From Vulcanimicrobiaceae bacterium (GTDB lineage: Bacteria; Verrucomicrobiota; Verrucomicrobiia; Limisphaerales; Palsa-1400): DNA of 64,000 nt. A program made the translations under genes and the position numbers. The notes below the pieces were generated by a model, which was given only the letters and a program-made list of their open reading frames with translations, did no database searches and was not told where the DNA came from. The stretch spans positions 82,950 through 146,949 of the forward strand of contig DATKFW010000032.1 in assembly GCA_035511075.1 (NCBI GenBank), written 5' to 3'. This document shows, piece by piece, positions 24,136-39,368 of this stretch; positions within the stretch are counted from its first letter, which is position 1, and each line of letters opens with the position of its first letter.

Positions 24136-24141
24136 TCGCGC

Positions 24142-25587
24142 ATGAGCCACGAAATTGAGAATGTCCGACCGACCCCGGACCGGCTGCTCTCGGAGATTGC
24201 CGATTACGTTTGCGCGGGGCCGGAATTGAGCGCGCTGGCGTTCGAGACGGCGCGCTATTGTTTGCTGGACACGCTGGGGTGCGGGATTCTCGCGTTGAAT
24301 TTTCCCGCCTGCGCAAGGCTTCTCGGTCCGATTGCGCCGGGGACGGTCGTGCCCCATGGCGCGCGGGTGCCTGGGACGAATTACGAATTGGACCCGGTGA
24401 CGGCGGCATTCAACATCGGATGCGCCATTCGCTGGCTGGATTTCAACGACGCGTGGCTCGCCGCGGAGTGGGGGCATCCGTCGGACAATCTGGGGGCAAT
24501 CCTGGCCGTGGGAGATTACCTTGGCCGCACGCGTCCTGAAATGGGACTGACGATGCGCGATCTCCTCACGGCGATGATTCAGGCGCACGAGATTCAAGGG
24601 GTGCTGGCGCTGGGCAACAGCTTCAACCGCGCCGGACTCGATCACGTGTTGCTGGTGCGGGTGGCATCGACAGCGGTGGCGACGCAACTGATGGGGGGGA
24701 CGCGCGCAGAGGTCATCAACGCTGTCTCCAACGCGTGGGTGGATGGCGGCGCGCTGCGGGTCTATCGTCACGCGCCCAATACGGGACCGAGGAAATCGTG
24801 GGCGGCCGGGGATGCGACGGCCCGCGCGGTGTGGCACGCGTTGCTGGCGTTAAAGGGTGAAATGGGCTATCTCTCGGCGCTCTCGGTCGAAGGCTGGGGA
24901 TTCTGCGACGCGCTGTTTCGGTCCAGGCCGATTGAATTGGCGCGGCCATTTGGTTGTTACGTGATGGAGAACATTTTGTTCAAGATTCGCTTTCCCGCGG
25001 AATTTCACGCGCAGACGGCGGTCGAGGCGGCAATCCAGCTTCATCCTCACGTCGCGGACCGGCTTGCGGAAATTGAACGGGTTGAGTTGAAAACGCACGA
25101 GTCGGCCATTCGCATCATAGACAAGAGAGGCCCGCTGCACAATCCGGCCGACCGCGATCATTGCCTGCAATACATGACGGCCGTCGGGCTGATATTTGGC
25201 GCGCTGAAAGCGGAGGATTACGAGGACAAGACGGCGGCGGACCCGCGCATCGACGCGTTGCGCGAAAAAATGAGGGTGACGGAGGAGCCGCGGTACAGCT
25301 ACGAGTATTTGGAGCCTGACAAGCGCGCCATTGCCAACGCCGTGCAGGTTTTTTTCAAGGACGGATCGAGCACAGCAAAAGTGGAAGTGGAATATCCGAT
25401 AGGTCATCGGCGCCGGCGCGCCGAGGGGTTGCCGTTGCTGCTGCGCAAGGCGCGCGAGAACCTGTCGACACGATTTCCCCCCAGCCAGGTGGAGCGCATT
25501 GTCCAATTGTGCCACGATGCCGGACGTTTGGAGGCGATGAGGGTGTGCGAATTCATGGAATGCTTTCTCCCGGCTGGAGCGTTTTAA
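24142..25587 (+). CDS. prpD: 2-methylcitrate dehydratase (MmgE/PrpD family)
   Basis: 481 aa, colinear with PrpD as I recall it (..[12 protein letters not shown].., ..WGHPSDNLG..). Completes a prpBCD operon. Confidence 0.9.
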
Positions 25588-25782
25588 GAAATACTGTAGC
25601 CGTTTGGAGCGAGGATTTTTGGGTTTTGGCGAGGCTTCGGCGAAGGAGCAGAGCATCCGCTTTGCGGTGCATCTTTTGTATTGTGCTGTCTCCTGCGGCA
25701 CGTGACTGAGCCGAAACGAAGCCAAAACCCAAAAAGACCGCTTCTTAATTCCATTCAGCCAAACGGCTACAGTATTTCTTAA
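25584..25782. repeat. ~200-bp nested inverted repeat (MITE-like / large hairpin element) abutting the prpD stop codon
   Basis: Outer arms TTAAGAAATACTGTAGCCGTTTGG (25584-25607) and CCAAACGGCTACAGTATTTCTTAA (25759-25782) are perfect complements. Inner arms TTTTTGGGTTTTGGC (25616-25630) and GCCAAAACCCAAAAA (25721-25735) are also perfect complements. Confidence 0.85.
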
Positions 25783-26329
25783 ACCGCTCTCCCAAAGGCG
25801 TGACGCCTCAAACGCAGACAGGGCGCAATTGACTTTTTGGGCGTCAATCAACCGATCGAAAAGGGAAAAGTGTCAGCGGTAGTTTGGATTGTTTTCGGCT
25901 TCGGTTTCCGACAGGTTTCACGCGTCCCGTCCTTCGCCGTGAACGGGGAAGTGCGGTTTCACCGTTCATTTCCGGGGGTTCAATTTTTGTTGATTCGGGT
26001 CCAATGGTCGCGGCGAGCGCCGTGGCGGTGAGAGCTTGTATTGTCGTCATATTGACTTCGTAGTTTGCGACCGTTCCACATCCATAGACACCGAGGGATC
26101 CGTAATTGTTTCCAAAAAATGCAAACGATTGAAAATTCGGTTTCCGGCAAATTGCCAATGCCATCTGGAACACCCCGGCTCGGGCACTGATCGGTTCGCG
26201 GAATACCGGTGGGAACGACACCGGTCCTGGTCGCCCAAAAACACGCCCGGGATTGGGGTTTTTCGCCAGGAACCGCCTATTTCTGTGCTTGCCATTTGGG
26301 ATGGATACGCCTAGCGTCTGATAAAGAGG

Positions 26330-26404
26330 GCGCGGTTAGCTCAGTGGTAGAGCATCACCTTGACACGGTGGGGGTCACAGGTTCAATCCCTGTATCGCGC
26401 ACCA
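26330..26404 (+). tRNA. tRNA-Val (anticodon GAC), CCA encoded
   Basis: Manual cloverleaf. Acceptor GCGCGGT/ATCGCGC (one G-U), D arm GCTC-AGTGGTA-GAGC, anticodon arm TCACC-TTGACAC-GGTGG, T arm ACAGG-TTCAATC-CCTGT, discriminator A plus CCA. Confidence 0.9.
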
Positions 26405-27673
26405 TTTGGACTCTTCTTGACTCTTCGCGACAGAAGCCGACAAACCATGACAATCCCCTTTGTTTTCAAGGCTTTTGGCAATTTGCGTTACCGCAAAATC
26501 CGCGACAGACCGCGACACCGCGGGACTGCTCTGGACTATAGTTTGTGAGTCCAGTTGTGAGTCAGGTTTTGCGGCCTTCTCACCGTCGATAAAAGCCAGC
26601 TTTTGCACCGCTTCAAATGTGCCAAGCTGCTCTTCGTCAGTGTAGTCCATGTCCGTAAGCTTGCGCGTCCCGTGTCGCATCAATTGCATCGCCTGACGCC
26701 CTGACACGTTTGCCCGGTGCAGGTTCGTGCAAAACGTGTGACGCAAGGCGTGAAAATCCGCCCGCAATCCCCGCTCATCAACGAACAGGATTTGCGCTTT
26801 ATCCATGTCCGACTTGAACGTTTCCATTTTCGGTAACAATCCGGCAAACACCCTGTCTGAATCACCCGCCCGCGCAGATCGAAGGGCTTTTAATTCAACG
26901 GCCAGGCTCAAATGCAGCGGAATAAACGCCTGCTTGCCATTCTTCGTTGTACCCGCGCGGAGCACCAATCGCGGTTGCGGACAGTCCAAATGAACGTCTC
27001 CCCATAAAAGTTCCCGCAATTCGCCCCGCCGAACTCCCGTCAGCATCGCCATCAAATAGACTATCCGCCGCCGACCAGCCACCGCCAGCAACCGCGACGC
27101 CTCATTGTCGGTCAGAGCGCGACGTGCATACCGTGGTTTGATCGCCCGCGTGGTACGCCATCCTTCAACAATTTTGAGCGGATTCGCCTGGAGGCGCTCC
27201 CGCCGTTCCATCCAGTTCAGCAATGCCTTGAACGAGATCAAGTATTCATTGAGGGTTTTGTCCGATTGCTTTTGCTCCGCCCGCCATGCGCGGAACGAGT
27301 CCGGCGAAATGTCCCGCGCAAATTCCCAACCACAGTCGCCGGCGACTTTCAATACGCGGTTCTTCAATTCGTAAAGATAACGCTCGTCGCGTCCACCCTC
27401 CCGACGCTCCGCCACAAAATCGGCCAGGTGTTCCGCAATCGTCTTTTGCGCACCCTCACGGATGTTTTTCGGGGTGATCACCCCTTCAGCCTCCTGTTGC
27501 CTCTCACGAGCGATTTTCTTCAACCTCTCAAGCGCCACTTGCTTGTCGAAAGTGTGCAACGGAATGTCGGTTGTCTTTGTGGCCCCATCCAATCGCAAAC
27601 GACCGCGATACATTCGGGCGGTTTTCGACCGACCCTTTTTGCTCCGTTTGGGTTTGAACACATATAAAATCAC
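26375..27673 (-). CDS. int: tyrosine recombinase / phage-type integrase
   Basis: Probable GTG start at 27673 (GTGA overlap with the upstream ORF stop), giving (M)ILYVFKPKRSKKG... Catalytic residues in ..LTGVRRGEL.., ..HALRHTFCTNL.., ..LMRHGTRKLTDMDYTD... The 3' end runs into the tRNA core and stops at a TGA at 26375-26377. Confidence 0.9.
   Translation of the reverse strand: MILYVFKPKRSKKGRSKTARMYRGRLRLDGATKTTDIPLHTFDKQVALERLKKIARERQQEAEGVITPKNIREGAQKTIAEHLADFVAERREGGRDERYLYELKNRVLKVAGDCGWEFARDISPDSFRAWRAEQKQSDKTLNEYLISFKALLNWMERRERLQANPLKIVEGWRTTRAIKPRYARRALTDNEASRLLAVAGRRRIVYLMAMLTGVRRGELRELLWGDVHLDCPQPRLVLRAGTTKNGKQAFIPLHLSLAVELKALRSARAGDSDRVFAGLLPKMETFKSDMDKAQILFVDERGLRADFHALRHTFCTNLHRANVSGRQAMQLMRHGTRKLTDMDYTDEEQLGTFEAVQKLAFIDGEKAAKPDSQLDSQTIVQSSPAVSRSVADFAVTQIAKSLENKGDCHGLSASVAKSQEESKWCAIQGLNL
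26377..26405 (+). repeat. att core copy 1 (within the intact tRNA-Val 3' end)
   Basis: ACAGGTTCAATCCCTGTATCGCGCACCAT. Identical at 34528-34556 and with one mismatch at 35809-35839. Confidence 0.9.
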
Positions 27674-27870
27674 GCTGGCAATCCTCTCTGACGTTGTTTC
27701 AGTTTGCTCAAGTACGCTTGGACATCCGACAGATACAGCATCGGTTTTTTCGTCGGCCTGACGGGCGTCGGAAGCTCGCCTTTCGCGATCAATCTTTCCA
27801 CTGACCGGGCACAAATCCCACCCAGGAACCTGCCAGCCTCTCTCAAATCAATTAAACGTTCCTCGTTCAT
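27670..27870 (-). CDS. excisionase/AlpA-like helix-turn-helix DNA-binding protein
   Basis: 66 aa from the ATG at 27870: MNEERLIDLREAGRFLGGICARSVERLIAKGELPTPVRPTKKPMLYLSDVQAYL.. (MerR/Xis-type HTH_17 pattern). Translationally coupled to int. Confidence 0.65.
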   Translation of the reverse strand: MNEERLIDLREAGRFLGGICARSVERLIAKGELPTPVRPTKKPMLYLSDVQAYLSKLKQRQRGLPA

Positions 27871-27907
27871 GTGTTTTTCTCTACTGAGGGATTCCACCAA
27901 CTGCCAT

Positions 27908-28342
27908 TCACCGTCGCTCCTCCTCGTCCATAGCATCACGATACGCCGCCTCCTGCTCTTCTTGGAAGGACAAGCGCTTGGTGTATTCACGATAAACCGA
28001 ATTATGGTCGCACTCGATGCCCCGTTCTTGCAACCATTCCGCGATTTCGCGAAACGTGAACCGTTTGTCGTCCCGCAGGAGCCTGATTGAATCGCCGTAC
28101 TCTGCCACAAGCGTTCGATCTGGTTCTTCCATTGCCTCTCGCAACACAAATTCCGGCAGAGGATTTCCACGCTCCGTTACAGCCAAAGCAGGCTGTGTTT
28201 CGGTTTTGACCTCCTGAGAGGGAAGCGACAACGGTTCCTTAACCTTGACTTTCTTGACACGCATCTTTGTTTTCACGGGAACAAAGTAAACGAACATCCC
28301 GAACAGCGCAAGGGAAAACAACAAAGTATCTCGCCTATGCAT
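27908..28342 (-). CDS. membrane-anchored protein with C-terminal resolvase-like HTH
   Basis: ATG at 28342 gives MHRRDTLLFSLALFGMFVYFVPV (TM). C-terminus ..IRLLRDDKRFTFREIAEWLQERGIECDHNSVYREY.. resembles HTH_7-type DNA-binding motifs. The start codon is uncertain. Confidence 0.5.
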   Translation of the reverse strand: MHRRDTLLFSLALFGMFVYFVPVKTKMRVKKVKVKEPLSLPSQEVKTETQPALAVTERGNPLPEFVLREAMEEPDRTLVAEYGDSIRLLRDDKRFTFREIAEWLQERGIECDHNSVYREYTKRLSFQEEQEAAYRDAMDEEERR

Positions 28343-28653
28343 CTCATGTATAATCCACACTGATATACTGAAACCTGTCATTCCCTGCTGCGCGTTCCTG
28401 TGTTGGCATCCGGCTTGCGGCAAACAGGAACGCCAAGCCAAATGCCAACACGCGAACGCTCCGCCCCCACAAGTGCCTGGTCGTGAAGTCGCTGGATTCC
28501 AGCTTGCGCCCTGTTTGCCCTTCGCAAGATGGAATCCACCGCCATCACCGCCAGGAAGCTGACGCCACGGGGAAGGCCGCTTTTAGGGTGTCATTTATGG
28601 CTGTCCGCTGTCGCGGGGGGTGGAAAATCAGACCGTGCTTTTACTCGCTCTCC

Positions 28654-28671
28654 GCCGCCGCGAGCGGCGGC
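28654..28671. promoter_or_regulatory. perfect 8+8 palindrome GCCGCCGC-GA-GCGGCGGC in the leader of the cargo operon (possible operator)
   Basis: Read directly in the 527-nt region between the divergent HTH gene and the cargo operon. Function is not established. Confidence 0.25.
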
Positions 28672-28968
28672 AATCCGGTGTAAATGCGACGCACGAGCCG
28701 CGGTGTTCTTTGTTTCACGATTGTTTCAATTTAAAACTTGCTATCAGGATGCCCGTCGCTCAATGCTCCGAGTGGTTCTTTAACAGTTCAGATTTTGCGT
28801 AGCGTTGACCGCTACTCAAAGCCGCAGGAAAGACCCGCCAAGTTTCAAGGGCACGAACAAGAAACTCTCTTGCAGGTGCCGTAGCGTGTCGCCTCCTGAC
28901 CGGAGCGCCGGTGTGCGCCCCTCAGGTTTTCTCTGGAGCGAACGGTCAAATTTAAAGGAGTCCCAAAT

Positions 28969-31038
28969 ATGAATCGTCAATCAGCCCTTTTGCATGGAGT
29001 CTTTATCGCCGCGATTGGTCTTTGGCTTGCAGTCAACGCCTCAGCACAACTGCAATTTACGTCAATCTCAAACACCCCTGAAGGGACCATTCAATTGAAA
29101 TGGGCGAGCATAAGCAAGGAAACCTATGAAATTGACGAAGCCGATACACTGGAAACGAACGCCCAGGGATCCCTCACTTGGAACGAACTTTACAAAGAAT
29201 ATCCATCTCAAGGCTCAAGTACGTTCTGGCTGGACACCGGGAACTATATTTCTGTGCCCCCCATCCTCAATCCTAAGTACACGACTAACCGGTTTTATCG
29301 CGTCGTCGATCTTGGGCCTGACACCACATCCGACGAGCCGACCGTCTCGATCACGTCCCCTGCCAGTGGCTCCACGGTATCTGGGAGTTTGACGATAACG
29401 GTTGCCGCCAGCACCGATCAGACCAGCCTTTCGACGTTGCTTTACGTTGACGGCCAGGAGATGCCGGTTAGCGCTGGTGGCTCCAATTACGTCATCAACA
29501 CCTGCGAATGGCTGAATGGTCAGCATATCCTGTTTGCAACTGCCCGATGCACCTCGGCACCCGAAGGTGGGGACAATAGCCCGGCAGTCCTGGTCGGACA
29601 TGCGGTATCCGCATTCGTGCCTGTAACATTTAACAACCTCGTTACCGGTATTACCTTTTCGCAGCCGTTCTTTGATCCCACACTTGGCCAAACCCAGTTG
29701 GTCACTGCCGTTTTTGCCTCGAATTCAGATTGGACGCTGACAATTATCAACGCAGCGAGCAACACCGTGAGAACGGCAACTGGAAGCGGAACCACGATGG
29801 CTTTTAACTGGGATGGAACAGGAACTGGAGAAATAAGCTTACCGGCAGGCGTCTATAATTACCTGATTTCAGCATACACAAACGGACTGGGTTCAGGGGG
29901 TAGTGGCACCAATGGAGGAGGAAACGGGGAACCGCCGCCGCCTGGTGGCGACGAGGTCTCGCCTGGGTCACCGGCATCGGTCAGTGGGACCGGAATGGAA
30001 ACAGTTCAACTTCCCCCTGCCCCTGTTCCATTCTTTTATGGAAGGAACGCTGACGGAACCGAAATTACGACGATGGAGGTTCCTGTGCCTGACAATACAA
30101 TCGACGAAAGCGCGCTACTTGCAGGCGGGATACATCCTGATGGCGCTCCATCGGCCCCCAGTTCGCAATCGGCTCCTGCTGCTCCGGTGCGCCCGCCGAC
30201 CGCACCGGTCAGAGGCACGGTCGGAACATTTGGGGTGGCATATCAATCCTATATAGAAAACGGCGCGGCGGGCTATACGCTAGGCGACCCTCTGAACTGC
30301 GAGATTGGCGGCGTCATCAAAATAGAGGGTTTCCCGACCGATGAAAACAACAACTTTCCGCCGCTGCCGTCATACGGTCCGCAAGCGAGAAACTTCATCG
30401 CCGCAATGAAACAGGGAGGCTGGAACGCCAGCTTTGTGACTGCTGATAATCAGGTAAGGTCTACTACGATTACAGGCAGCGCAAGCCCTTTCAATCAAGT
30501 CAATTTAGGATTGCTCATGCTTCACGGCGTTTACGGCGCTACAGCCGACTATTGCTACAACGGCTGCAAACAAATGTACTTTCCGCTCGGAAACCTCTAC
30601 GGCAGCGCCAGTTGGATTAATATGGGCGACATGAATTTTGGCGGCACGCCCACAAACGGGCTTGAGTGGATGGCAATCGAAGCCTGCTTTAGCCTTTACC
30701 AGCCCAACTGGACGAGTATGCAAAGCGCAAATATAAAGCCTTATAATAGTAACCTCCATTTGCTTTTGGGGGTAAATACAACCAGCTTCACCGATCGAAA
30801 CCGAGAGGCGCTTTGGGCCCAATACATGCAGTTCGGAAAGACTCCCGGCAGTCCGATGACAATCCAGGCAGCTTGGTATCAGGCTGCCAGAGATGGGTTT
30901 CAATTGAGCAAATTCAGCTACGACGGTACGATAAGCTACGCCGTTGCGGGGGATGCCAACTGCTCAGGTGATTACTTGTTAACTAATTCGCCTCCGACGG
31001 GAACGCAGTTTTATTTCAGCCAGCAAATTTATCCCTAG
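28969..31038 (+). CDS. secreted multidomain protein: FYRV module + Ig-like + FlgD-Ig-like + Gly/Pro linkers + C-terminal clan-CD-like (His-Gly...Ala-Cys) domain
   Basis: AAGGAG 8 nt upstream of the ATG. Signal peptide (..AIGLWLAVNASAQ). PTVSITSPASGSTVSGSLTITVAAS (Ig-like). ..WTLTIINAASNTVRTATGSGTTMAFNWDGTG..LPAGVYNYLI (FlgD-Ig-like). GSGGSGTNGGGNGEPPPPGG linker. LGLLMLHG (His519) and WMAIEAC (Cys573) in the last ~270 aa. Confidence 0.75.
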   Translation: MNRQSALLHGVFIAAIGLWLAVNASAQLQFTSISNTPEGTIQLKWASISKETYEIDEADTLETNAQGSLTWNELYKEYPSQGSSTFWLDTGNYISVPPILNPKYTTNRFYRVVDLGPDTTSDEPTVSITSPASGSTVSGSLTITVAASTDQTSLSTLLYVDGQEMPVSAGGSNYVINTCEWLNGQHILFATARCTSAPEGGDNSPAVLVGHAVSAFVPVTFNNLVTGITFSQPFFDPTLGQTQLVTAVFASNSDWTLTIINAASNTVRTATGSGTTMAFNWDGTGTGEISLPAGVYNYLISAYTNGLGSGGSGTNGGGNGEPPPPGGDEVSPGSPASVSGTGMETVQLPPAPVPFFYGRNADGTEITTMEVPVPDNTIDESALLAGGIHPDGAPSAPSSQSAPAAPVRPPTAPVRGTVGTFGVAYQSYIENGAAGYTLGDPLNCEIGGVIKIEGFPTDENNNFPPLPSYGPQARNFIAAMKQGGWNASFVTADNQVRSTTITGSASPFNQVNLGLLMLHGVYGATADYCYNGCKQMYFPLGNLYGSASWINMGDMNFGGTPTNGLEWMAIEACFSLYQPNWTSMQSANIKPYNSNLHLLLGVNTTSFTDRNREALWAQYMQFGKTPGSPMTIQAAWYQAARDGFQLSKFSYDGTISYAVAGDANCSGDYLLTNSPPTGTQFYFSQQIYP

Positions 31039-31043
31039 GCGGC

Positions 31044-32006
31044 ATGAAAGCGGCGGGAGTCTGCATTTTGCTTCAGGTTCTTTGCGCCGCAGGTTATTCC
31101 GAGAATCTGCGGTTTAAGCAGTTCGGAACACCTATTCCAGCACGCGCTGATCTGGACGTGCGCTGGAATGGGCCTTCCAATGCGTTTCCGGCGAAGCTGT
31201 GGATTTATCACCTGCTGCCAGCAAAGTTTTCCGCTGAGACCATCGGCACTTTGACAGAGCTAGGTTCATTCACGGACAAAGATAGAACTGATTCAGGGGC
31301 AACCGAAATGCGCTTTCGCAGCGCTGACAAGGCTCGCAGTTTATACATATCCTTTCCCCTTGGAGTGATCGATTACGAAGGCGTACCTAAGTACAACCCG
31401 ACTAATCTGGTCGAAGACATTCCAAGTAAGGAAACGGCGGTCGATCTGACGCGGCAACTTCTGCCTAAGCTTGGAGTCAGGCTTTCCGACATAGACAAAG
31501 AGGAAAACAGCCCGGAACCCGCATTCCATGTGGGCGATTCTGCGATTACGTTTTTTGTTAATGGCACATTCGTCAGCAACATTGTCGAACGCCGGGTCGG
31601 TTTCCGGCGCGCCGTGGACGGCGCGTCATTTCTCAGCGCAGGCTCAGGCGGCGACGGAGACGTGAAATTCGGGGACCACGGCAAAATAGTCCAGATTTAC
31701 ATTTCGTGGCGTGGGTTGGACCGGGACAAGTCCTGTCCGACTGTTACACTCGACAAGATCGTCGAGTCGATTCGTAAAGGCCAAGCCGTGCAAGGATTGC
31801 TTCCATCCGACGCTCCTGGGATCGACTGGCCGAAGGTGAAAAGCATCACCATCAAGAAGGCGTGGCCTTGTTATTACGCCGGGAACCCTCTTGCTCCTTC
31901 CGATTGGCTTTATCCGTTTGCGGCGCTCTCAACAACCGTCGATACTGGCCGCCGGAATGTTGATGTCGAAATCGATTGCCCTATCATCGAAGAAGCTGGG
32001 GAATGA
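31044..32006 (+). CDS. secreted hypothetical protein, paralogue of the next gene
   Basis: 320 aa with a signal peptide (MKAAGVCILLQVLCAAG). Aligns with the next ORF (FPAKLWIYHLLPAKFSAETIGTL versus LPGDFWIYRRVLPHIFSASVISN; LLPKLGVRLSDI versus CASRLGVDLAQV). Starts 5 nt after the previous stop. Confidence 0.65.
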   Translation: MKAAGVCILLQVLCAAGYSENLRFKQFGTPIPARADLDVRWNGPSNAFPAKLWIYHLLPAKFSAETIGTLTELGSFTDKDRTDSGATEMRFRSADKARSLYISFPLGVIDYEGVPKYNPTNLVEDIPSKETAVDLTRQLLPKLGVRLSDIDKEENSPEPAFHVGDSAITFFVNGTFVSNIVERRVGFRRAVDGASFLSAGSGGDGDVKFGDHGKIVQIYISWRGLDRDKSCPTVTLDKIVESIRKGQAVQGLLPSDAPGIDWPKVKSITIKKAWPCYYAGNPLAPSDWLYPFAALSTTVDTGRRNVDVEIDCPIIEEAGE

Positions 32007-33004
32007 AAGCTTTTGTGCTCATCGCAATGATTTCGGGGATGGCTTTACCCTCTATTTGCGGTCCATATGCGTCGATGGAGAAATTCTCTCCCCATTTCTC
32101 CACAAATACACCGATTCTCTGGAAAGCAACGAATCAATTGCCCGGGGATTTTTGGATTTATAGGAGGGTTCTTCCGCATATCTTTTCCGCATCGGTGATT
32201 TCCAACGCAATCCTTCTGGCCTCGTTGGAGAAAGGCGGCTTTCCCAAGCCTTCCGCCAATGACTTTTACGTGCATGAAGATAAGGAACCAAACTACCCTG
32301 GCGCGATCTCCTGTTATTTTGGCATTATCCCTGGTGACGCGCATCTGTATTATGGCGCGCCCCACCCGGATACCAATTCAACGGAAATTCCAGATGACGA
32401 AATTCTCATAAAACGCGCGCGGGACTGTGCATCCCGACTCGGGGTTGATCTCGCACAGGTCGTTGCGGAGAAGCCAAGTTCCATTTTTAATCGGGATAAG
32501 GATTGGCACACGTTGACGAATCAGATTTGTGGCCGCCGCGTCTTTTTGTCGCGTCAGCTTGACGGAATTACATTTTACGACCACAACGACAACGGATGGA
32601 GTGAAGGCTTGAGTTTTGCCCTCAGCAATGGCGGAACAATCAGGTCCTTTTATCTGGACTGGCCAGAGGTTAAGCGGGCTGACCGGGGTCAAACGGCCAG
32701 CGTTCAGCAAATCATCGCCCTCATACGGGCACATAGAGTCATTGTGCTTCCCAATGTCGGTGAAGAAACGTATTTTCAGAGGGTCAAAGCGCTGGCAAAC
32801 GCCAAAACGTTCAGCATCACGAATGTTACTCCGTACTATCTCGACGGTGAGTTGGGGGACACGAATCAAAATTACGCGCCGCCTAAATACGCAACCCCGA
32901 TTGCTGAACTGGACGCTGTTGCCGACTTCGGGAACAGTAATGCCGCCGTTCGGATGTTTTCTTTCATCCTGTCCTCTGACGCGACGAGAGCGCTTACCAA
33001 ATAG
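32003..33004 (+). CDS. secreted hypothetical protein, paralogue of the previous gene
   Basis: ATG at 32003 overlaps the upstream stop (ATGA). Signal-like MKAFVLIAMISGMALPSICG. Colinear similarity to the 31044-32006 product. Confidence 0.65.
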   Translation: MKAFVLIAMISGMALPSICGPYASMEKFSPHFSTNTPILWKATNQLPGDFWIYRRVLPHIFSASVISNAILLASLEKGGFPKPSANDFYVHEDKEPNYPGAISCYFGIIPGDAHLYYGAPHPDTNSTEIPDDEILIKRARDCASRLGVDLAQVVAEKPSSIFNRDKDWHTLTNQICGRRVFLSRQLDGITFYDHNDNGWSEGLSFALSNGGTIRSFYLDWPEVKRADRGQTASVQQIIALIRAHRVIVLPNVGEETYFQRVKALANAKTFSITNVTPYYLDGELGDTNQNYAPPKYATPIAELDAVADFGNSNAAVRMFSFILSSDATRALTK

Positions 33005-33207
33005 ATTACCCGCAAATTCACTCTCCACCAGCGGCGTGAAACCATCGCTCGTGGCATAAGGCGGGCCGGTTTTTGCCGGTCATTCTGGCTGTCTCTTAAA
33101 ATTACTTTCCCGACTACGCCGTGCGGCCTTTCTGATGAGCACGCTAAAGTCCCCGCCGTGACACGCAAGCCGAAAAGCGGTTCTCCCCGTAACACCGTTG
33201 GTCCCGG

Positions 33208-33705
33208 TCATCCGCGCGAAAGTGTTAAATCTCCCGCATACGCCGGATGACGCGGGCCCAAAAGTTTCACGTTCCACCATGAACCTTCTTTCGTGACGTA
33301 TTTGGCGCAGTAATCGGCGACGTCATCTCGATTATTGACTGGCTCGATCCGGTTGCGACCATAACGCTCAAACCAAGTTCGCCAGGTTTCGCGCCGCGAT
33401 TTACTTTTACAATCACACCACAACGCGTGGACATGGTATCCATCCCTTCCTGGATTTTGTTCCAACGCGTAGAAATACGACACGCCCCACATTTCCCGTT
33501 TCATGAACTTTTCGTAACACCGTTGCGCCGACCAAATGGACGCTTCCCATGCAAATGTCATGTGTGAAATGACCTGCCACGGAGCCAGCGAATGCACCCA
33601 ATCGCCCATCTCCACGTTCAACTGCGCGACTTTCAACCGCATCGCCGGTTCAAGATTCCTCGCGTTGTTCATATTTACCCGTGGGCTGATTATTTCTGTA
33701 CACAC
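33208..33705 (-). CDS. small HUH-superfamily rolling-circle Rep/relaxase-like protein (two-tyrosine type)
   Basis: Motif I-like ISHMTFAW. HUH motif GYHVHALW (33427-33435). Two-Tyr motif YCAKYVTK (33289-33312), 6/8 identical to the phiX174 gpA active-site octapeptide YVAKYVNK as I recall it. Confidence 0.7.
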   Translation of the reverse strand: MCTEIISPRVNMNNARNLEPAMRLKVAQLNVEMGDWVHSLAPWQVISHMTFAWEASIWSAQRCYEKFMKREMWGVSYFYALEQNPGRDGYHVHALWCDCKSKSRRETWRTWFERYGRNRIEPVNNRDDVADYCAKYVTKEGSWWNVKLLGPRHPAYAGDLTLSRG

Positions 33706-33721
33706 CTTTCGGACAAGGATG

Positions 33722-33773
33722 GGGCAGTGGCCGGGCGCACCCGCTAAAGCGGGTGCATCCCGGCCACTTGCCC
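33722..33773. promoter_or_regulatory. long imperfect hairpin between the 112-aa ORF and Rep (candidate nick site/origin or operator)
   Basis: GGGCAGTGGCCGGGCGCACCCGC-TAAA-GCGGGTGCATCCCGGCCACTTGCCC: a ~23-bp stem with one bulge, one 2-nt mismatch and a 4-nt loop. It lies 17 nt upstream of the Rep start codon. Confidence 0.5.
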
Positions 33774-33810
33774 TTCTCCCACGAGGCCGCCATGTGTGGC
33801 CGCGTTACCA

Positions 33811-34149
33811 CTACTCCAAGGGCAGCGTTGAAACCGCCCGAATCATGACGCCGTTCTTGGCGTCAAACGTGTTCGGTTCCATCAGGTCGAATTCGATCAC
33901 CAGCTTTTGCCCGTCTTTGAAGATGCACGGGCATTGCGAAGTGGCTTGTTCGACTGTCTGGACGCTCCGAGGGCACCAGGTTTGAACCGTCGGTGCCTTC
34001 CCGTCGGCACATTGAACTTCGTAAAGGTTCACGATGCCGACGACCTTTTGTGCCTTGTTCTGAACTTCTTTGTAGCGATGCGCCACAAACTTGGCGATGG
34101 CCACACGGCGGCCCGCCAAGAACTGATTAACTGCTTCTGCTTGTTTCAT
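33811..34149 (-). CDS. hypothetical protein (first gene of the Rep transcription unit)
   Basis: 112 aa, same strand as and directly upstream of Rep. No recognisable motif. A single-strand-binding role is only a guess from position. Confidence 0.4.
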   Translation of the reverse strand: MKQAEAVNQFLAGRRVAIAKFVAHRYKEVQNKAQKVVGIVNLYEVQCADGKAPTVQTWCPRSVQTVEQATSQCPCIFKDGQKLVIEFDLMEPNTFDAKNGVMIRAVSTLPLE

Positions 34150-34311
34150 GTTTTTCCATTTGGCTTAACTGCGCAACAGGCGACGCCACGGCCTTCGCCG
34201 TTGAGGTTCACAACGATCAGTCCTTCGATTTTTCCATCCACGCCGGCCGAGCGAGCAGAATGGCCGGTTAGTTGCGCGACAGGCAGGCCACGCCTATTGC
34301 GAAAGGGAGCA

Positions 34312-34340
34312 TTGACAGTGCGCCGCTTCATTGGTAAAGT
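34312..34340 (+). promoter_or_regulatory. outward-facing sigma70-like promoter in end module copy A
   Basis: TTGACA (34312-34317), 17-nt spacer, TAAAGT (34335-34340). Points across the att core toward the PEP-CTERM gene. Confidence 0.45.
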
Positions 34341-34527
34341 TTCGTTGAAGTGGAACCCATTTCAGCCAGTGCCAGGATTGCAGCTTTGACAGCGGGAAGG
34401 AGCGTCGGCCAAGCGTTGATGACCGAAGCCAACTCGGCGGGAACAGGTGCCACTTGGTGTCCGACTGCGGTTTGTGAGTCTATTTGTGAGGCTCTTGGCG
34501 TAACGGCTTGATTTGCATCAGGCTTTG

Positions 34528-34556
34528 ACAGGTTCAATCCCTGTATCGCGCACCAT
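34528..34556 (+). repeat. att core copy 2 (attR of the 8.2-kb element)
   Basis: Identical 29 nt to 26377-26405. Confidence 0.9.
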
Positions 34557-34791
34557 CTAATCGGAAACGACCGCCCTGATGCTCTTGGCCGCGTCCGCCC
34601 CATCCGCGCTCTTTCTCCGGCCAGCGTCCAAAGACGCGCCGTGGAGTTGCTGACGACGCTGACGGACGCGAATTCGCTGATGGCCGAAAAGTGACTACGA
34701 ATGTCCCATAATCGGGTAGATGAGTTTTGTGGGGTCTGGTATTTTTATTATGAAAGCGTAGTTAGAAGACTAAAAAAAAAGACCAAAAATT

Positions 34792-35478
34792 ATGAAGAGT
34801 AGCATCGTTAAATTCTGCTTAGTGGGTATGACAATCGCGAGCGGACTCGCGTTGGCTGGCGAGGCTCAGGCCACGATTATTACCACGGCAACGCAAACCC
34901 CCACTTTTGACCCCACCGATTTTAACAATCCGGGCGGCGGCTATAGTTTTAACAATCTCTCACTGCCCGCCGGCACCTCTATTGGAACCACGGTGCTGCA
35001 AATTGACATTCCATTGTCAAGCAGTATCACCTTGACCAGCGTGGGCATGGGGTACAACTACGGCTTTGGCATGGGTGGCCTCGACCCTGAAATCCAGCCT
35101 GGCGGCGAAGCGTTCAGCTTTTACATTCAGTTGCTCAACAATGGTTCGGCCATTACCCCGAGTTATGCTTATCTCATGGCAAATCCCTATACTTTCGGGT
35201 TCACAGAGCCTAATCCGTTTGGTGTTCCCGAGAACAATTTGTATGTCACCACCGGCACCGGGTCGCTTGCCTCAAGCCTGACCTTTAATGAAATCGACAT
35301 TCAGGTTTTTAACTATAGCCAGACCGAAGCTGCAGACAGTTTCGGTGTTTCGTTGGGGGTCAATGAGCCTCTTAACGCCGTTCCCGAGCCGACAACGCTG
35401 ATCTCCGGCGCGATGCTGCTGCTGCCGTTTGGATCGAGTGCCCTGCGGCAGTTGCGCAAGAAATTACAGACGGCTTAA
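34792..35478 (+). CDS. PEP-CTERM sorting-domain protein
   Basis: Signal peptide (..GLALAGEAQA). C-terminal VPEPTTLISGAMLLLPFGSSALRQLRKK (PEP motif + TM + basic tail). Confidence 0.85.
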   Translation: MKSSIVKFCLVGMTIASGLALAGEAQATIITTATQTPTFDPTDFNNPGGGYSFNNLSLPAGTSIGTTVLQIDIPLSSSITLTSVGMGYNYGFGMGGLDPEIQPGGEAFSFYIQLLNNGSAITPSYAYLMANPYTFGFTEPNPFGVPENNLYVTTGTGSLASSLTFNEIDIQVFNYSQTEAADSFGVSLGVNEPLNAVPEPTTLISGAMLLLPFGSSALRQLRKKLQTA

Positions 35479-35507
35479 TAAGCGATTCGATTTTTCCGAT
35501 CTCCGAG

Positions 35508-35539
35508 AGGCGTTGGCTCTGGCCAGCGCCTTTTTGTTT
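35508..35539 (+). terminator. rho-independent terminator of the PEP-CTERM gene
   Basis: AGGCGTTGGC-TCTG-GCCAGCGCCT: a 10-bp stem with one G-U, followed by TTTTTGTTT. Confidence 0.7.
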
Positions 35540-35629
35540 CCTTCGATTTTTCCATCCACGCCGGACGAGCAGGCAGAATGGCCGGTTAGTTGCGCAACAG
35601 GCTGGCCAAGCCTATTACAAAAGGGAGCA

Positions 35630-35658
35630 TTGACAGTGCGCCGCCTCATTGGTAAACT
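35630..35658 (+). promoter_or_regulatory. outward-facing sigma70-like promoter in end module copy B
   Basis: TTGACA (35630-35635), 17-nt spacer, TAAACT (35653-35658). Points toward the prepilin-type gene at 35894. Confidence 0.4.
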
Positions 35659-35808
35659 TCCTCTGAAGTGGAACCCGTGCCAGCCGCGCCAGGATTGCAG
35701 CTTTGACATCGGGAATGAGCGTCGGCCAAGCGTTGATGACCGAAGCCAACTCGGCTGAAACAGGTGCCACTCGGTGCTCGGCTGCGGTTTGATTTGCATC
35801 AGGCTTTG

Positions 35809-35839
35809 ACAGGTTCGATCCCTGTATCGCGCACCATTT
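35809..35839 (+). repeat. att core copy 3 (outermost, one mismatch)
   Basis: ACAGGTTCGATCCCTGTATCGCGCACCATTT. One A-to-G change relative to the tRNA. Matches 2 further nt of the tRNA 3' flank. Confidence 0.85.
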
Positions 35840-35893
35840 AAGGAGGGAATTTTTTTGACTTTAGAGTCTTAACGATTAAAATAAGGTAAAGCT

Positions 35894-36670
35894 ATGTTGA
35901 AGAGATCGTATCTCACTCCAAACCGCCCTGAACAGGCGTTCACGCTGATCGAGCTTCTTGTCGTCATCGCCATCATCGCAATCCTGGCCGGGATGTTGTT
36001 GCCCGCGCTGGGGCAGGCCAAGATCAACGCCCAACGGAAAGTGACCCAGGCTGAGGAGAACAACCTGGTCGGCGCCATCAACCAGTACTATGCAACCTAT
36101 AGCCGGCTCCCCGCCTCTTCCAACGCTGTCAACGCGGCCACAGGCGCAACCCTCAACTCGAACGATTTCACATTTGGCACCTACGATTTGAAGATACCTG
36201 CCCTGGCCGATCCGATCCTGACTCGCGGCGTCGGCTCCAAGAACGGAGGGGACTACCAGACCAACAATGCCGAAGTGATGGCCATTCTTCGGGATGACAA
36301 CTGGTACCCGGAATTCAATGGCAACTTCGGTCACATTTACAATCCGCAGCAAACGGTGTTTTACTCGCCGAAGGCGGCAGCGGGCACCAACACGCCGGGC
36401 GTCGGTTTCGGCAATCCCGGCCTGGGTTCGGACGAGGTGCTGCGCGATATTTGGGGCATGCCCTATATAATTACCCTGGACCTGAACTATAACAATCGAG
36501 TTTACGATGATACGCTGGAGCAGATGTATAAGGTAAATCATGCTGGCGCCCCTGCGTTGATAACACCGGGGGAAGCCGTGGTGTGGTCTTTTGGCCCTGC
36601 AAAAACGATTAACACAGGCGTGGGACTGGGCGTAAGCTCAAACAAGTACGCCGTCCTGAGTTTCCAATAA
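35894..36670 (+). CDS. prepilin-type N-terminal cleavage/methylation domain protein (type II secretion pseudopilin-like)
   Basis: ..PEQAFTLIELLVVIAIIAILAGMLLPALGQAK.., the canonical PVC prepilin-like N-terminus. Confidence 0.85.
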   Translation: MLKRSYLTPNRPEQAFTLIELLVVIAIIAILAGMLLPALGQAKINAQRKVTQAEENNLVGAINQYYATYSRLPASSNAVNAATGATLNSNDFTFGTYDLKIPALADPILTRGVGSKNGGDYQTNNAEVMAILRDDNWYPEFNGNFGHIYNPQQTVFYSPKAAAGTNTPGVGFGNPGLGSDEVLRDIWGMPYIITLDLNYNNRVYDDTLEQMYKVNHAGAPALITPGEAVVWSFGPAKTINTGVGLGVSSNKYAVLSFQ

Positions 36671-36686
36671 AGGCTGGCTGCGGGAC

Positions 36687-37079
36687 GTGAGTTCAAGTCA
36701 AGGATTTCTGGAGCCAGAGGGCTTGCGCGTGACGGTGGATCGCGTCATCTACAATCCGGAGGCGAGAACACCGCCGGACCGGCCGCATTGTTTCATTTAC
36801 GTTATCACCATTCATAACGGCAGCGATCACGCCGTGACGATCAAGGGGCGCAAGTGGGTGGTGACCAATGATCACGGAGAAGTGACCGCGCTGGAGGGCG
36901 ACGGCGTGGTAGGCCAGACCCCCACGATTAATCCCGGCCAAAAATTCACCTACAATTCTTTCCACTTGCTGGATTCAAAATCCGCAAAGGCCGAGGGGAG
37001 CTATGTCGGCAAGGATGACCTCGGCCGCAAGGTGTTGGCGCGGATCCCGGCTTTTCAGATGGCGGTGCCGGGAAGTTAG
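36687..37079 (+). CDS. apaG: ApaG (DUF525) protein
   Basis: GTG start, 130 aa. ..FIYVITIHNGSDHAVTIKGRKWVVTNDHGEVTALEGDGVVGQTPTINPGQKFTYNS.. matches the ApaG fold family. Confidence 0.85.
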   Translation: MSSSQGFLEPEGLRVTVDRVIYNPEARTPPDRPHCFIYVITIHNGSDHAVTIKGRKWVVTNDHGEVTALEGDGVVGQTPTINPGQKFTYNSFHLLDSKSAKAEGSYVGKDDLGRKVLARIPAFQMAVPGS

Positions 37080-37080
37080 G

Positions 37081-37101
37081 AGCGTGTCTCAAACACACGC
37101 T
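37081..37101. terminator. hairpin between convergent apaG and infA
   Basis: AGCGTGT-CTCAAAC-ACACGCT (7-bp stem) in the 22-nt gap. U-tracts are weak. Confidence 0.35.
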
Positions 37102-37320
37102 TTAACTGTGGCGGAATGTGATCCGGGCCTTGCCCAGATCGTACGGGGACATCTGGACGTTGACCTTGTCTCCCACGCTGATACGGATGAAATTCTTGCG
37201 CATCTTGCCGGAGATATGGGCGAGGACCTCGTGGCCGTTGGGCAGGGCGACGCGAAACATTGTGCCCGGCAACACTTGCGTCACCGTTCCCAGTAGTTCA
37301 ATTGGTTCTTCTTTTGCCAA
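37102..37320 (-). CDS. infA: translation initiation factor IF-1
   Basis: TTG start at 37320 gives (M)[71 protein letters not shown]: 72 aa, colinear with E. coli IF-1. Confidence 0.92.
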
Positions 37321-37500
37321 GCATTGAATTGGGCTACGCGAACCCCTTATTCCATCGCGGTCGCGAACCTTGGCTCGCTCCCGGGCGAAAATCAAGGAAA
37401 GTTTTCATCGCCGGTCACTGGTCGAGGTTTCTTTGGGCTTGGGCGGCGTCGGAAACAGCCGCAAGGGGGGTCAACAATAATACGATTGCCGATATGCGGC

Positions 37501-39324: not shown

Positions 39325-39368
39325 CGCTAAATTCTCGCGTCCCATTCAAGTCTCAGCATTATTAGGAC

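Follow-up and report, generated by a model that had tools for sequence, protein, structure and literature searches.

The tRNA-Val(GAC) locus

The window analysed here, a stretch of 64,000 nucleotides from the metagenome-assembled genome of a peat verrucomicrobium (156 contigs, 98% complete), contains an intact tRNA-Val(GAC) gene (ARAGORN; Rfam tRNA, 66.8 bits). Integrase, regulatory, cargo and replication genes and a second, decayed unit lie between copies of its 3' end. The left flank carries PrpC/PrpD, and the right flank a pilin-like gene starting at 35894, ApaG and a GreA fusion. The features are as follows, with the strand in parentheses where there is one.

26330–26404 (+): tRNA-Val(GAC), intact; its 3' end is the attL core
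26375–27673 (−): tyrosine integrase, 432 aa in the integrated form
26377–26405: att core copy 1 (attL), exact 29-nt repeat
26543–26563 (+): tandem pair TTGTGAGTC-N3-TTGTGAGTC, candidate arm-type integrase site, left arm
27670–27870 (−): Xis-like small HTH gene, 66 aa, translationally coupled to the integrase gene
27908–28381 (−): HTH protein with one N-terminal hydrophobic segment (LLFSLALFGMFVYFVPV); start codon uncertain
28381–28676: structured non-coding block upstream of the three genes above; hairpins 28392–28459 and 28476–28556
28969–31038 (+): cargo 1, secreted, 689 aa; Ig-like domains, Gly-rich linker, C-terminal DUF6345
31044–32006 (+): cargo 2, secreted, 320 aa; Verrucomicrobiota-only family (Atlas clusters)
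32003–33004 (+): cargo 3, paralogue of cargo 2; inferred start ATG at 32003 (listed ORF from TTG 31976)
33208–33705 (−): two-tyrosine HUH rolling-circle Rep, 165 aa; alternative ATG start at 33672
33722–33773: GC-rich hairpin, then invariant CCATCCTTGTCCGAGAGGTGTG; candidate double-strand origin
33811–34149 (−): OB-fold protein, SSB-like, 112 aa; core gene of the element family
34221–34527: end module A, with the integrase tail exon and the right-arm TTGTGAG pair (34472–34492)
34331–34528 (−): integrase tail exon, 66 codons, joining the integrase frame only in circular form; ends ...ELASVINAWPTLLPAVKAAILALAEMGSTSTKLYQ
34528–34556: att core copy 2 (attR of the intact element), exact repeat
34557–35808: relic of an older related element (235 nt of unassigned DNA, PEP-CTERM-like gene, hairpin, module B)
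34792–35478 (+): PEP-CTERM-like gene, by pattern only (VPEP, hydrophobic stretch, RK-rich end)
35505–35534: terminator-like hairpin, in the relic
35539–35808: end module B, decayed; 36 nt shorter and with a 1-nt deletion
35809–35837: att core copy 3, degenerate with one mismatch, bordering the original flank of the chromosome on its right

A 29-nt string, made up of the last 28 nt of the tRNA gene plus one T, occurs in exact copies at 26377–26405 and 34528–34556 and, with a single T-loop mismatch (A to G), at 35809–35837. The copies are spaced 8151 and 1281 nt apart, and the string had no match in 100 shuffles. A preliminary description of this DNA had reported all three copies, placing the end of the third at 35839 instead of 35837. 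The 3' end of the tRNA gene is identical to that of four aligned relatives; since all four have A at the T-loop position, the G in copy 3 represents drift.

Empty tRNA-Val sites, which the preliminary description had proposed to look for in close relatives, are present in seven related genomes of five genera (G001, G002, G006, G008, G014, G017 and G018). At these sites the tRNA directly adjoins the pilin-like gene, and the tRNA match runs into the match to the DNA on the right of copy 3, the overlap being precisely the core. In a base-by-base alignment of four of them (G001, G002, G006 and G017), the flank after copy 3 (TTGACTTTA...) aligns. The empty sites thus identify the whole 9.4 kb, by sequence comparison, as a site-specific insertion. 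The element has a G+C content of 53.5% and the relic one of 53.1%, lower than the 58.1% and 59.5% of the flanks, as had been noticed earlier, and the 58.0% of the whole genome; values as low as the element's occur in 0.7% of genomic 8.15-kb windows.

Positions 26377–34556 most probably represent a site-specific integrative element, intact and 8,151 bp long, that entered tRNA-Val(GAC) at its 3' end; we put the joint probability of the whole explanation given here at roughly 0.8. All of its backbone genes are open, and its gene content is that described previously: an integrase reading into copy 1, a coupled Xis-like HTH gene, a membrane HTH gene, secreted cargo and an HUH Rep.

Integrase gene and its circle-only tail

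The integrase (PF00589, E 1.8e-15; phrog_1, E 3.7e-38) shares R215, K244, H308, R311, H334 and Y344, invariantly, with 19 homologues, and none of its catalytic residues is missing. Its frame runs across the att core and ends at a TGA to which tRNA bases contribute, and its GTG start at 27673 overlaps the stop of the small HTH gene. Weak scores, to phrog_66 ('excisionase and transcriptional regulator', E 2.6e-5) and to HTH_17 (E 0.048, under the Pfam cut-off), suggest that this 66-aa protein may be Xis-like.

In all eight elements compared, the att core lies inside the integrase gene, and the frame enters a conserved tail of ~60 residues only when the element is circularised. The circularised stop-to-stop frame is 499–505 codons long in five full-length elements; in the tRNA-Val element the circular form would encode 498 aa from the start codon, as against 432 aa when integrated. 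The tail motif, VVxxWxxLPxxxKAAILAIV, is found in 17 other loci, always in a short ORF at the Rep-proximal end. Differences among 18 tails number 1466, 1122 and 2747 at the three codon positions, a third-position excess that indicates purifying selection on the tail. As read from the frames, the integrase gene loses a conserved tail upon integration, and the chromosomal 432-aa and circular 498-aa forms are predicted to be two different integrases, as in phage Mx8. A joined integrase-tail protein was found neither among 1.8 billion representatives nor in a word-indexed search.

All four matches to TTGTGAGNC in the window lie inside the element, as two pairs, one per arm, and these tandem pairs are candidate arm-type integrase sites. 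The integrase subfamily is patchy in its order (32 of 301 genomes); the further homologues with a tRNA in the locus read into that tRNA in eight of eight cases.

Replication module

The Rep protein matches PF23343 (REP_ORF2-G2P) with E 1.5e-6 and 28.9 bits, against a cut-off of 27.8, and its motifs vIsHxTF, GxHxHALW and DYCAKYVxKe are kept in 20 homologues. The sequence of the adjacent hairpin varies among family members, while its arms stay complementary in the alignment as read and the flanking 22 nt are nearly invariant; hairpin and invariant sequence together are a candidate double-strand origin. The 112-aa OB-fold protein, 70–96% identical in 24 aligned homologues, is SSB-like as judged from its AF2 model (pLDDT 83), the closest folds being the OB domains of SSB, PriB and RPA (Foldseek E 6e-4; VIA Z 8.0).

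Membrane HTH gene, non-coding block and cargo

The membrane HTH protein has a weak match to HTH_32 (E 0.021) and a homologue with 38% identity at the same position in a second element of this genome, at tRNA-Gly; protein clusters of this kind occur in six elements. The neighbouring non-coding block is 91% identical in the tRNA-Gly element. It has a fold z-score of −4.3, with compensatory changes at nine base pairs among 23 copies, and lies 1.2–1.5 kb from integrase genes at 11 loci in four genomes; no Rfam family matched it.

The three cargo proteins have signal peptides. Cargo 1 matches DUF6345 (E 1e-9) and Big_7 (E 1.4e-7), and the Atlas model of its C-terminal part resembles CHAT, C11 and C25 folds (TM 0.53–0.70), a likeness that may serve as a lead only. 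Cargo 2, which matched no Pfam family, is 24% identical to cargo 3, whose ATG at 32003 would overlap the cargo 2 stop.

End modules and relic

Module A has a promoter-like site on the + strand (34312–34340; 10 of 12 matches, by consensus only). Positions 34221–34556 are duplicated at 35539–35837, with ~91% identity outside the 36-nt and 1-nt deletions, and core copies 2 and 3 are the ends of this duplication. The duplicated end module recognised earlier between these copies corresponds to it. The preliminary description had also considered that the repeats might belong to a longer, unrelated duplication: a longer duplication does exist, but it is the element's own end. Module B lacks the 36 nt that hold the TTGTGAG pair (a candidate arm-site pair), and its 1-nt deletion shifts the tail frame. 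With these losses and the drifted core, the sequence marks the 1,281-bp unit (34557–35837) as the decayed relic of an older related element, as had been surmised; its interior matched no other family locus. Between copies 2 and 3, the gene named PEP-CTERM in the preliminary description fits the pattern, while no HMM scored over threshold; the last 32 residues of its product are common to four other loci of the genome.

An element family in Verrucomicrobiota

The tRNA-Val element belongs to an undescribed, Verrucomicrobiota-wide family with a backbone of 3.4–4.3 kb. Read in the direction of Rep, the integrase tail exon comes first, followed by the OB-fold SSB-like gene, the origin-like hairpin, the two-tyrosine HUH Rep, variable cargo, the membrane HTH gene, the Xis-like HTH gene, the integrase and, last, the att core. 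The sister element at tRNA-Gly(GCC) (contig C125) has 90% nucleotide identity to the tRNA-Val element over Rep and the OB-fold gene, whereas the integrases are 36% identical and the cargo differs. A third element of the same genome is located at tRNA-Asp (contig C96). The Rep module was recognised in 58 species-level Verrucomicrobiota genomes of several orders and in 246 metagenome contigs; elements bounded by tRNA 3' ends occupy Val, Gly-GCC, Gly-CCC, Ser, Gln, Cys and Asp genes and range from 3,436 to 11,470 bp. Sister elements at other tRNAs, in this genome and across the phylum, show that the family is mobile. No identical contig ends were found across 138 family loci.

Activity and proposed cycle

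Mining for the attP circle and the repaired attB, as suggested in the preliminary description, yielded no junction in the contigs of three public DNA runs and one RNA run, a weak test because such contigs break at repeats. In run X3 the element has a depth of 26.4, in line with the 26–31 of its flanks. Of its reading as an excision-competent integrative element with its own Rep, the integrative nature, the integrase, the Xis-like gene and the HUH Rep stand, while excision is without a junction in these four runs.

On the explanation given above, an older related element was already present at the tRNA-Val site; the incoming element, which carried the last 28 nt of the gene, restored tRNA-Val and displaced the older one distally, and the latter has decayed to 1,281 bp. 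We infer the following cycle, none of whose steps has been observed. Recombination of attL with attR by Int and Xis would release an 8.15-kb circle, placing the att core inside the integrase gene and giving the 498-aa protein with its conserved C-terminal tail. Rep would then nick at the hairpin and invariant sequence, starting rolling-circle replication in which the displaced strand would be coated by the OB-fold protein. Finally, the full-length integrase would integrate the circle at a tRNA-Val gene. Since the element encodes neither a capsid nor conjugation functions, it would need a helper, or passive uptake of its DNA, to spread between cells.

It is rather unlikely that the element, having come by site-specific integration, is now a fixed island kept only for its cargo, which the tail-less chromosomal integrase cannot excise. 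The missing attP/attB junctions and an element depth equal to that of the flanks in four runs agree with such immobility, as do the occurrence of nearly identical copies of the element in many peat and permafrost runs and the lack of a joined integrase-tail protein in large protein libraries. However, the six backbone genes are all intact, as is the tail exon, next to a relic that shows how decay looks, and the 29-nt cores are identical. The 90% identity of the Rep module to that of a co-resident element with another integrase points to recent exchange, and purifying selection on the tail makes sense only if circles form. That the tandem is a chimera of strain variants joined by the assembler through the shared repeat is highly improbable, even for a metagenome-assembled genome and with public contigs breaking at every repeat. 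If strains having the block were mixed with strains lacking it, depth should differ from part to part, but in run X3 it is uniform (left flank 28–41, element 26.4, relic 20.9, right flank 26); a contig starting at 26376 carries the attL junction, and the same stretch was found again in 14 DNA runs.

Two other readings concern the helper, and we give little credence to either. The Rep match to REP_ORF2-G2P, the Atlas lead of the OB-fold protein (Putative_G5P, score 0.89) and an inovirus-like fragment of the same genome with a Zot ATPase and a pVIII-like coat gene (C121:375–4608) would fit a satellite whose gene II/gene V-type module is packaged by a helper inovirus. The G5P lead, however, scores lower than the tool itself regards as trustworthy, and the folds matched are OB domains of the generic SSB type. 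Zot and four neighbouring ORFs had no homologue in 140 family loci with flanks of up to 10 kb; within the taxonomic family, a Zot match is missing in four of five Rep genomes, and Rep in two of three Zot genomes. Rep is also absent from IMG/VR. Alternatively, the HUH Rep might double as the relaxase of an integrative mobilisable element riding a conjugative system, as relaxases related to rolling-circle initiators, phage-type included, are found in many streptococcal IMEs (PMC5704250). Known cases need TcpA-type coupling proteins (PMC5704250), but the element lacks a coupling protein, and the 98%-complete genome yielded no VirB4-family gene.

Comparison with known systems

The integrative element with a circle-only integrase tail resembles several known systems in part. 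In phage Mx8, the attP site is located within the tyrosine integrase gene, towards its 3' end, and integration creates a new 3' end while keeping the catalytic domain (PMC6070905). The IntP/IntX arrangement of Mx8 (and Mx9) is thus like that of the tRNA-Val element, and the small MerR-like HTH gene uoi overlaps the int start, an arrangement that recurs with the Xis-like gene of the element. The integration target of Mx8 is likewise a tRNA gene. In contrast, there is no detectable sequence similarity (integrase body, BLASTP E 1.1; tail, hhalign probability 0.1%), Mx8 is a 49.5-kb tailed phage whereas the present elements are 3.4–11.5 kb without virion genes, and the conserved tail motif is specific to the verrucomicrobial family.

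The phiX174-like and filamentous phage modules (gpA or gpII plus an ssDNA-binding protein) likewise have a Y-x-x-K-Y two-tyrosine HUH protein and a small OB-fold protein beside Rep; the element Rep is merely 165 aa, however, and no family member has morphogenesis or coat genes. The AICEs contain int and xis genes together with one for a rolling-circle Rep (repSA in pSAM2), and their replication follows excision; a split integrase gene is not known among them. They differ in their phylum, Rep family and self-transfer by an FtsK-like Tra protein, for which the tRNA-Val element has no gene. The pSAM2-type AICEs are, like the present elements, small (about 11–17 kb) and integrated in tRNA genes (PMC2440964). 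Streptococcal IMEs also combine a tyrosine integrase with an HUH or rolling-circle-type initiator in a small helper-dependent island (PMC5704250), but mostly have a TcpA coupling protein and ride Firmicutes ICEs.

The 'suicidal' SSV-type integrases of archaeal viruses and plasmids, described in a review as exclusive to archaea, likewise have an att site within the integrase gene, which is split on integration (PMC8371274). There, the split parts the N-terminal from the catalytic part and inactivates the enzyme, whereas in the verrucomicrobial element the split falls after the catalytic tyrosine and is predicted to leave the enzyme catalytically complete.

Insertion at the tRNA-Val gene

The single tRNA gene recognized by ARAGORN in the window is that of tRNA-Val(GAC), at 26330-26404. 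The last 28 nt of this gene plus one T (26377-26405) have an exact second copy at 34528-34556 and a third, with a single mismatch, at 35809-35837, confirming the three copies of the tRNA 3' end in the preliminary description, and the 29-nt core had no match in 100 shuffled sequences. The exact 29-nt direct repeat of the tRNA 3' end bounds an 8,151-bp element, and core copies 2 and 3 enclose a second unit of 1,281 bp (34557-35837), here called the relic. A longer duplication (34221-34556 versus 35539-35837) ends in core copies 2 and 3, with 276 identities over 303 aligned bases in a gapped alignment in which the second copy lacks 36 nt and a further 1 nt. The G+C contents of the element (53.5%) and the relic (53.1%) are low compared with that of the genome (58.0%), in agreement with the drop in base composition noticed previously within the interval, and a G+C content this low is seen in no more than 0.7% of equally long genomic windows. 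The left flank contains a citrate-synthase-family gene and PrpD, and the right flank a prepilin-type gene, ApaG and a GreA fusion.

An empty tRNA-Val site was found by DNA search in seven of 30 related genomes (G001, G002, G006, G008, G014, G017 and G018), representing five genera. In each of these, a single contig matches both the tRNA and the DNA to the right of core copy 3, and the two matches overlap by exactly the core. In the four empty sites that were aligned, tRNA-Val is followed, about 20 nt on, by TTGACTTTA, which is the sequence 3' of core copy 3 in the window and matches the promoter-like site of the pilin-like gene (35855-35882). All four have A at the T-loop position where core copy 3 has G, so that the mismatch represents drift in a non-functional relic. 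Since seven relatives have an empty tRNA-Val, the possibility that no relative has an empty site does not hold, and these comparisons support the earlier proposal that the 9.4-kb block is a site-specific insertion at the tRNA gene. As a tRNA-borne island, the locus is ordinary.

Two other features of the flanks were noted. A 214-bp nested inverted repeat (25577-25790) overlaps the prpD stop; copies with 80-93% identity exist on four other contigs (C126, C107, C15 and C80) and in the related genome G002, so that this is a repeated MITE-like element. The GreA fusion (37501-39345) is a 614-aa protein in which the GreA N- and C-terminal domains are confined to the last 155 residues, after a long, unassigned N-terminal extension.

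Gene content of the element and the relic

The features of the element are as follows.

26375-27673, - strand: tyrosine integrase (PF00589, E 1.8e-15); the GTG start overlaps the xis stop
27670-27870, - strand: Xis-like HTH protein, 66 aa (phrog_66, E 2.6e-5)
27908-28381, - strand: protein having a single hydrophobic segment and matching an HTH weakly
+ strand: cargo 1, a 689-aa signal-peptide protein with Ig-like domains and a C-terminal DUF6345
+ strand: cargo 2 and 3, signal-peptide paralogues of 320 and about 333 aa, of families seen almost only in Verrucomicrobiota
minus strand: Rep, 165 aa, above the Pfam cut-off for REP_ORF2-G2P (PF23343)
minus strand: OB-fold protein, 112 aa, with a confident predicted fold

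The HTH, Xis-like and integrase genes all read toward the tRNA. The integrase gene adjoins one end of the element, and its R-K-H-R-H-Y catalytic set is invariant in 19 homologues. All four matches of TTGTGAGNC in the window fall inside the element, as tandem pairs with one pair per arm, and these pairs are candidate arm-type integrase sites. The Atlas model of cargo 1 is similar to the caspase-like CHAT, C11 and C25 folds (TM 0.53-0.70). NCBIfam and PHROGs gave no name to the cargo, the OB-fold protein or the membrane HTH protein, and an Rfam search of 25000-37000 gave no match beyond the tRNA.

In the Rep, the motifs vIsHxTF, GxHxHALW and DYCAKYVxKe are kept in 20 homologues, with two tyrosines spaced by three residues (YxxKY). 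By its motif 1, His-hydrophobic-His motif, YxxKY motif and PF23343 match above cut-off, the protein qualifies as a predicted member of the two-tyrosine HUH rolling-circle class. The best structural matches of the OB-fold protein are SSB, PriB and RPA domains, with middling values (Foldseek E 6e-4, VIA Z 8.0). A GC-rich hairpin lies between the Rep and OB-fold genes, upstream of Rep, and is followed by a nearly invariant 22-mer. Because the arms stay complementary while the hairpin sequence varies among family members, and because of the adjoining 22-mer, this region is a candidate origin.

Between core copies 2 and 3, the relic contains 235 nt of unassigned DNA, a PEP-CTERM-like gene (no match was obtained with the PEP-CTERM HMM for 34792-35478), a terminator-like hairpin and end module B (35539-35808), the counterpart of end module A (34221-34527) in the element. 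Module B still encodes most of the integrase tail described below. Its deletions, namely the 36 nt holding the TTGTGAG pair and the 1 nt whose absence puts the end of the tail out of frame, together with its drifted core, uphold the earlier view of this unit as a decayed insertion. The relic interior has no match among the family loci. The relic fits an older family member from which all that lay between the left end and the end module has disappeared. In tandem tRNA arrays the element adjoining the tRNA is usually the later arrival, and we take the tRNA-proximal element to be so here.

An integrase gene that spans the att core

In the integrated state, the int frame runs through the core and ends at a TGA formed with a tRNA base, giving 432 aa. 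In the circular state, the frame would extend 66 codons into end module A and end in ...ELASVINAWPTLLPAVKAAILALAEMGSTSTKLYQ. Eight elements with defined ends were compared (four at tRNA-Gly (GCC), and one each at Val, Gly-CCC, Ser and Asp). In all eight the att core is situated inside the int frame, beyond the codon for the catalytic tyrosine, and on circularization the frame would run on into a conserved tail with the motif VVxxWxxLPxxxKAAILAIV, which int gains solely in that state. The stop-to-stop circular frame measures 499-505 codons in the five full-length elements other than the tRNA-Val element, and the chance of frame agreement across five different cores is about (1/3)^5. Among 18 tails, the differences at codon positions 1, 2 and 3 number 1466, 1122 and 2747, respectively; this excess at position 3 argues that the tail stretch is protein-coding in this frame. 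In 17 other loci the tail motif is always within a short ORF at the Rep-proximal end. No joined integrase-tail protein was found among longer proteins in a word-indexed search, nor by phmmer against 1.8 billion representatives, where all matches were short ORFs (41-152 aa), apart from a single spurious repeat protein.

A comparable arrangement is known in phage Mx8, in which attP lies inside int and integration makes a new 3' end, altering the behaviour of the enzyme (PMC6070905). The present element has the same placement of attP inside int and acquires a new int 3' end on integration. The proteins of the two systems have no detectable similarity. The integrase matches Mx8 IntP with a BLASTP E of 1.1, the tail profile matches the IntP C-terminus with a probability of 0.1%, and an organism tally of 140 phage hits includes no Myxococcus phage. 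No homology to Mx8 was found. Phage records contain no match to the tail. The archaeal 'suicidal' split of SSV-type integrases inactivates the enzyme (PMC8371274), whereas the catalytic domain of the element's integrase remains whole.

A more far-reaching reading, to which we assign a probability of about 35%, is that in an entire and hitherto undescribed verrucomicrobial integrase family the splitting of the gene at attP would act as a state switch: the circle alone would make the full-length tailed enzyme, driving integration, and the tail-less chromosomal enzyme would be attenuated or limited to excision. Mini-replicons with this integrase, a phiX/inovirus-type Rep and an SSB-like protein would then be helper-dependent hitchers, spreading cargo genes for secreted proteins among the Verrucomicrobiota of peat and soil.

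Some further observations concern the end modules. Each contains one promoter-like site (34312-34340 and 35630-35658; TTGACA-17-TAAAGT/TAAACT, with TG), recognized by consensus match only; both point outward across the core, and in the circle would read antisense into the int end. Three short database proteins from elsewhere (P0003, P0004 and P0005) share the AWPxL...AILA motif, which occurs twice in P0003, and P0004 starts with a tRNA-like GLEPS stretch, as expected of a tail ORF beside an att core.

Relatives and distribution

Duplicated tRNA 3' ends exist in the source genome at the Val, Gly and Asp sites and at no others. The latter two sites contain the following elements.

C125:11104-18474 (L009:6104-13474): sister element at tRNA-Gly(GCC), 7,341 bp, 30-nt repeats
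C96:39845-45180: third element, at tRNA-Asp(GTC), 5,307 bp, 29-nt repeats

The Rep and OB-fold genes of the tRNA-Gly sister are 90% identical in DNA to those of the tRNA-Val element, its integrase is 36% identical in amino acids, and its cargo is a DUF5122 beta-propeller. The tRNA-Asp element has a 42% identical integrase with the same split tail and a larger, different PF23343 (G2P)-type Rep (C96:43419-44474), and is without the family OB-fold gene.

The tRNA-Val Rep has homologues with 62-87% amino acid identity in 58 species-level genomes, and it also occurs in 246 contigs from metagenomes. The genomes are labelled Limisphaerales, Opitutaceae, Chthoniobacterales, Udaeobacter and others, and a few contigs bear different labels; IMG/VR has no contig with this Rep. 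Elements bounded by tRNA 3'-end repeats are located at Val, Gly-GCC, Gly-CCC, Ser, Gln, Cys and Asp tRNA genes and vary from 3,436 to 11,470 bp. Gene clustering gives a backbone of tail exon, OB-fold gene, Rep, membrane HTH gene, Xis-like gene and integrase, the cargo being placed after Rep and before the HTH gene. Patchy in its distribution, the integrase subfamily is present in 32 of the 301 genomes of the order, at identities up to 46%, and all eight further integrase homologues with a tRNA in the locus read into it (Lys, Val-CAC, Pro, Asp or Ser).

Excision and transfer

The runs containing element DNA are peat and permafrost metagenomes. Three DNA runs and one RNA run over 24000-38000 contain no attP or attB joint, but all are contigs that end at 26376, 34529 and 35726, at the repeats, and so argue neither for nor against excision; the depth of the element equals that of the flanks in contigs from public runs. 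Contigs of the RNA library are identical to 27598-27780, 27985-28232, 29950-30173 and 34529-34783, possibly by DNA carry-over. Circular contigs account for none of the 138 family loci examined for identical ends. Excision is plausible, because all backbone genes are intact and the cores of the element are identical, yet unproven, because no joint, joined protein or circular contig was found.

As to the route of transfer, an integrative conjugative element is ruled against by the element's own content, in which there are no conjugation or virion genes and no type IV secretion or FtsK-like gene among the ORFs, and by the absence of a VirB4 family match in the source genome. An inovirus-like prophage fragment does exist in this genome (C121:62-4608, locus L170, cut by the contig start). 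It encodes a pVIII-like coat protein (375-755), a secreted protein of 662 aa and an ATPase of the Zot family (3319-4608, E 1.7e-12), besides an ORF of 252 aa. The element itself has no P-loop protein, hence no Zot/pI ATPase, and no coat genes, and is rejected as an inovirus. That it might be a satellite of such a phage is a weak idea, because Zot and Rep do not co-occur across the 31 genomes of the taxonomic family and none of 140 family loci has a homologue of this Zot. In streptococcal IMEs, rolling-circle initiators act as relaxases (PMC5704250); for the tRNA-Val element no helper is evident. Contig C121 also has a tail-like ORF (14189-14353) adjoining host genes.

Significance of the family

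The novelty lies in the combination of an int gene rewritten by integration throughout the family, a minimal rolling-circle module and phylum-wide spread. The family unites two mechanisms otherwise known from unrelated systems, the rolling-circle replication of two-tyrosine HUH Reps and the self-rewritten integrase gene of Mx8, and our literature search found no description of mobile elements of this kind in Verrucomicrobiota. With its exact boundaries, empty sites and co-resident relatives, the present locus makes a clean type example. In peat and soil, Verrucomicrobiota are an abundant phylum for which, to our knowledge, few genetic tools have been established; integrases using at least seven tRNA species, 21-30-nt cores and a 3.4-kb backbone could serve as compact integration tools. 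The variable cargo, including secreted caspase-fold-like proteins and beta-propellers, shows what these bacteria exchange.

A two-hairpin non-coding block

Directly upstream of the HTH-xis-int genes is a non-coding block (28381-28676) that is 91% identical in the tRNA-Gly element, whereas the adjacent proteins are <50% identical. Its first 175 nt (28381-28555) fold into two hairpins, with compensatory changes at nine pairs in 23 copies. The block has no match in Rfam and is a candidate for a new kind of structured element. Its possible roles are operator or leader region for the integrase operon, single-strand origin, and site of module exchange. At 11 loci in four genomes, copies are oriented divergently from integrase genes at a distance of 1.2-1.5 kb, and solo copies are scattered in two genomes (19 and 23). 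Two-hairpin copies with 75-95% identity across genera occur in the related genomes G010, G016, G012, G006 and G017, and on contigs C5, C83, C91, C92 and C117 of the source genome.

Two further ORFs of the source genome match REP_ORF2-G2P (C153:3468-3833 and C92:16145-16480) and possibly belong to further rolling-circle elements; that on C92 is separated by about 3.5 kb from one of the two-hairpin copies.
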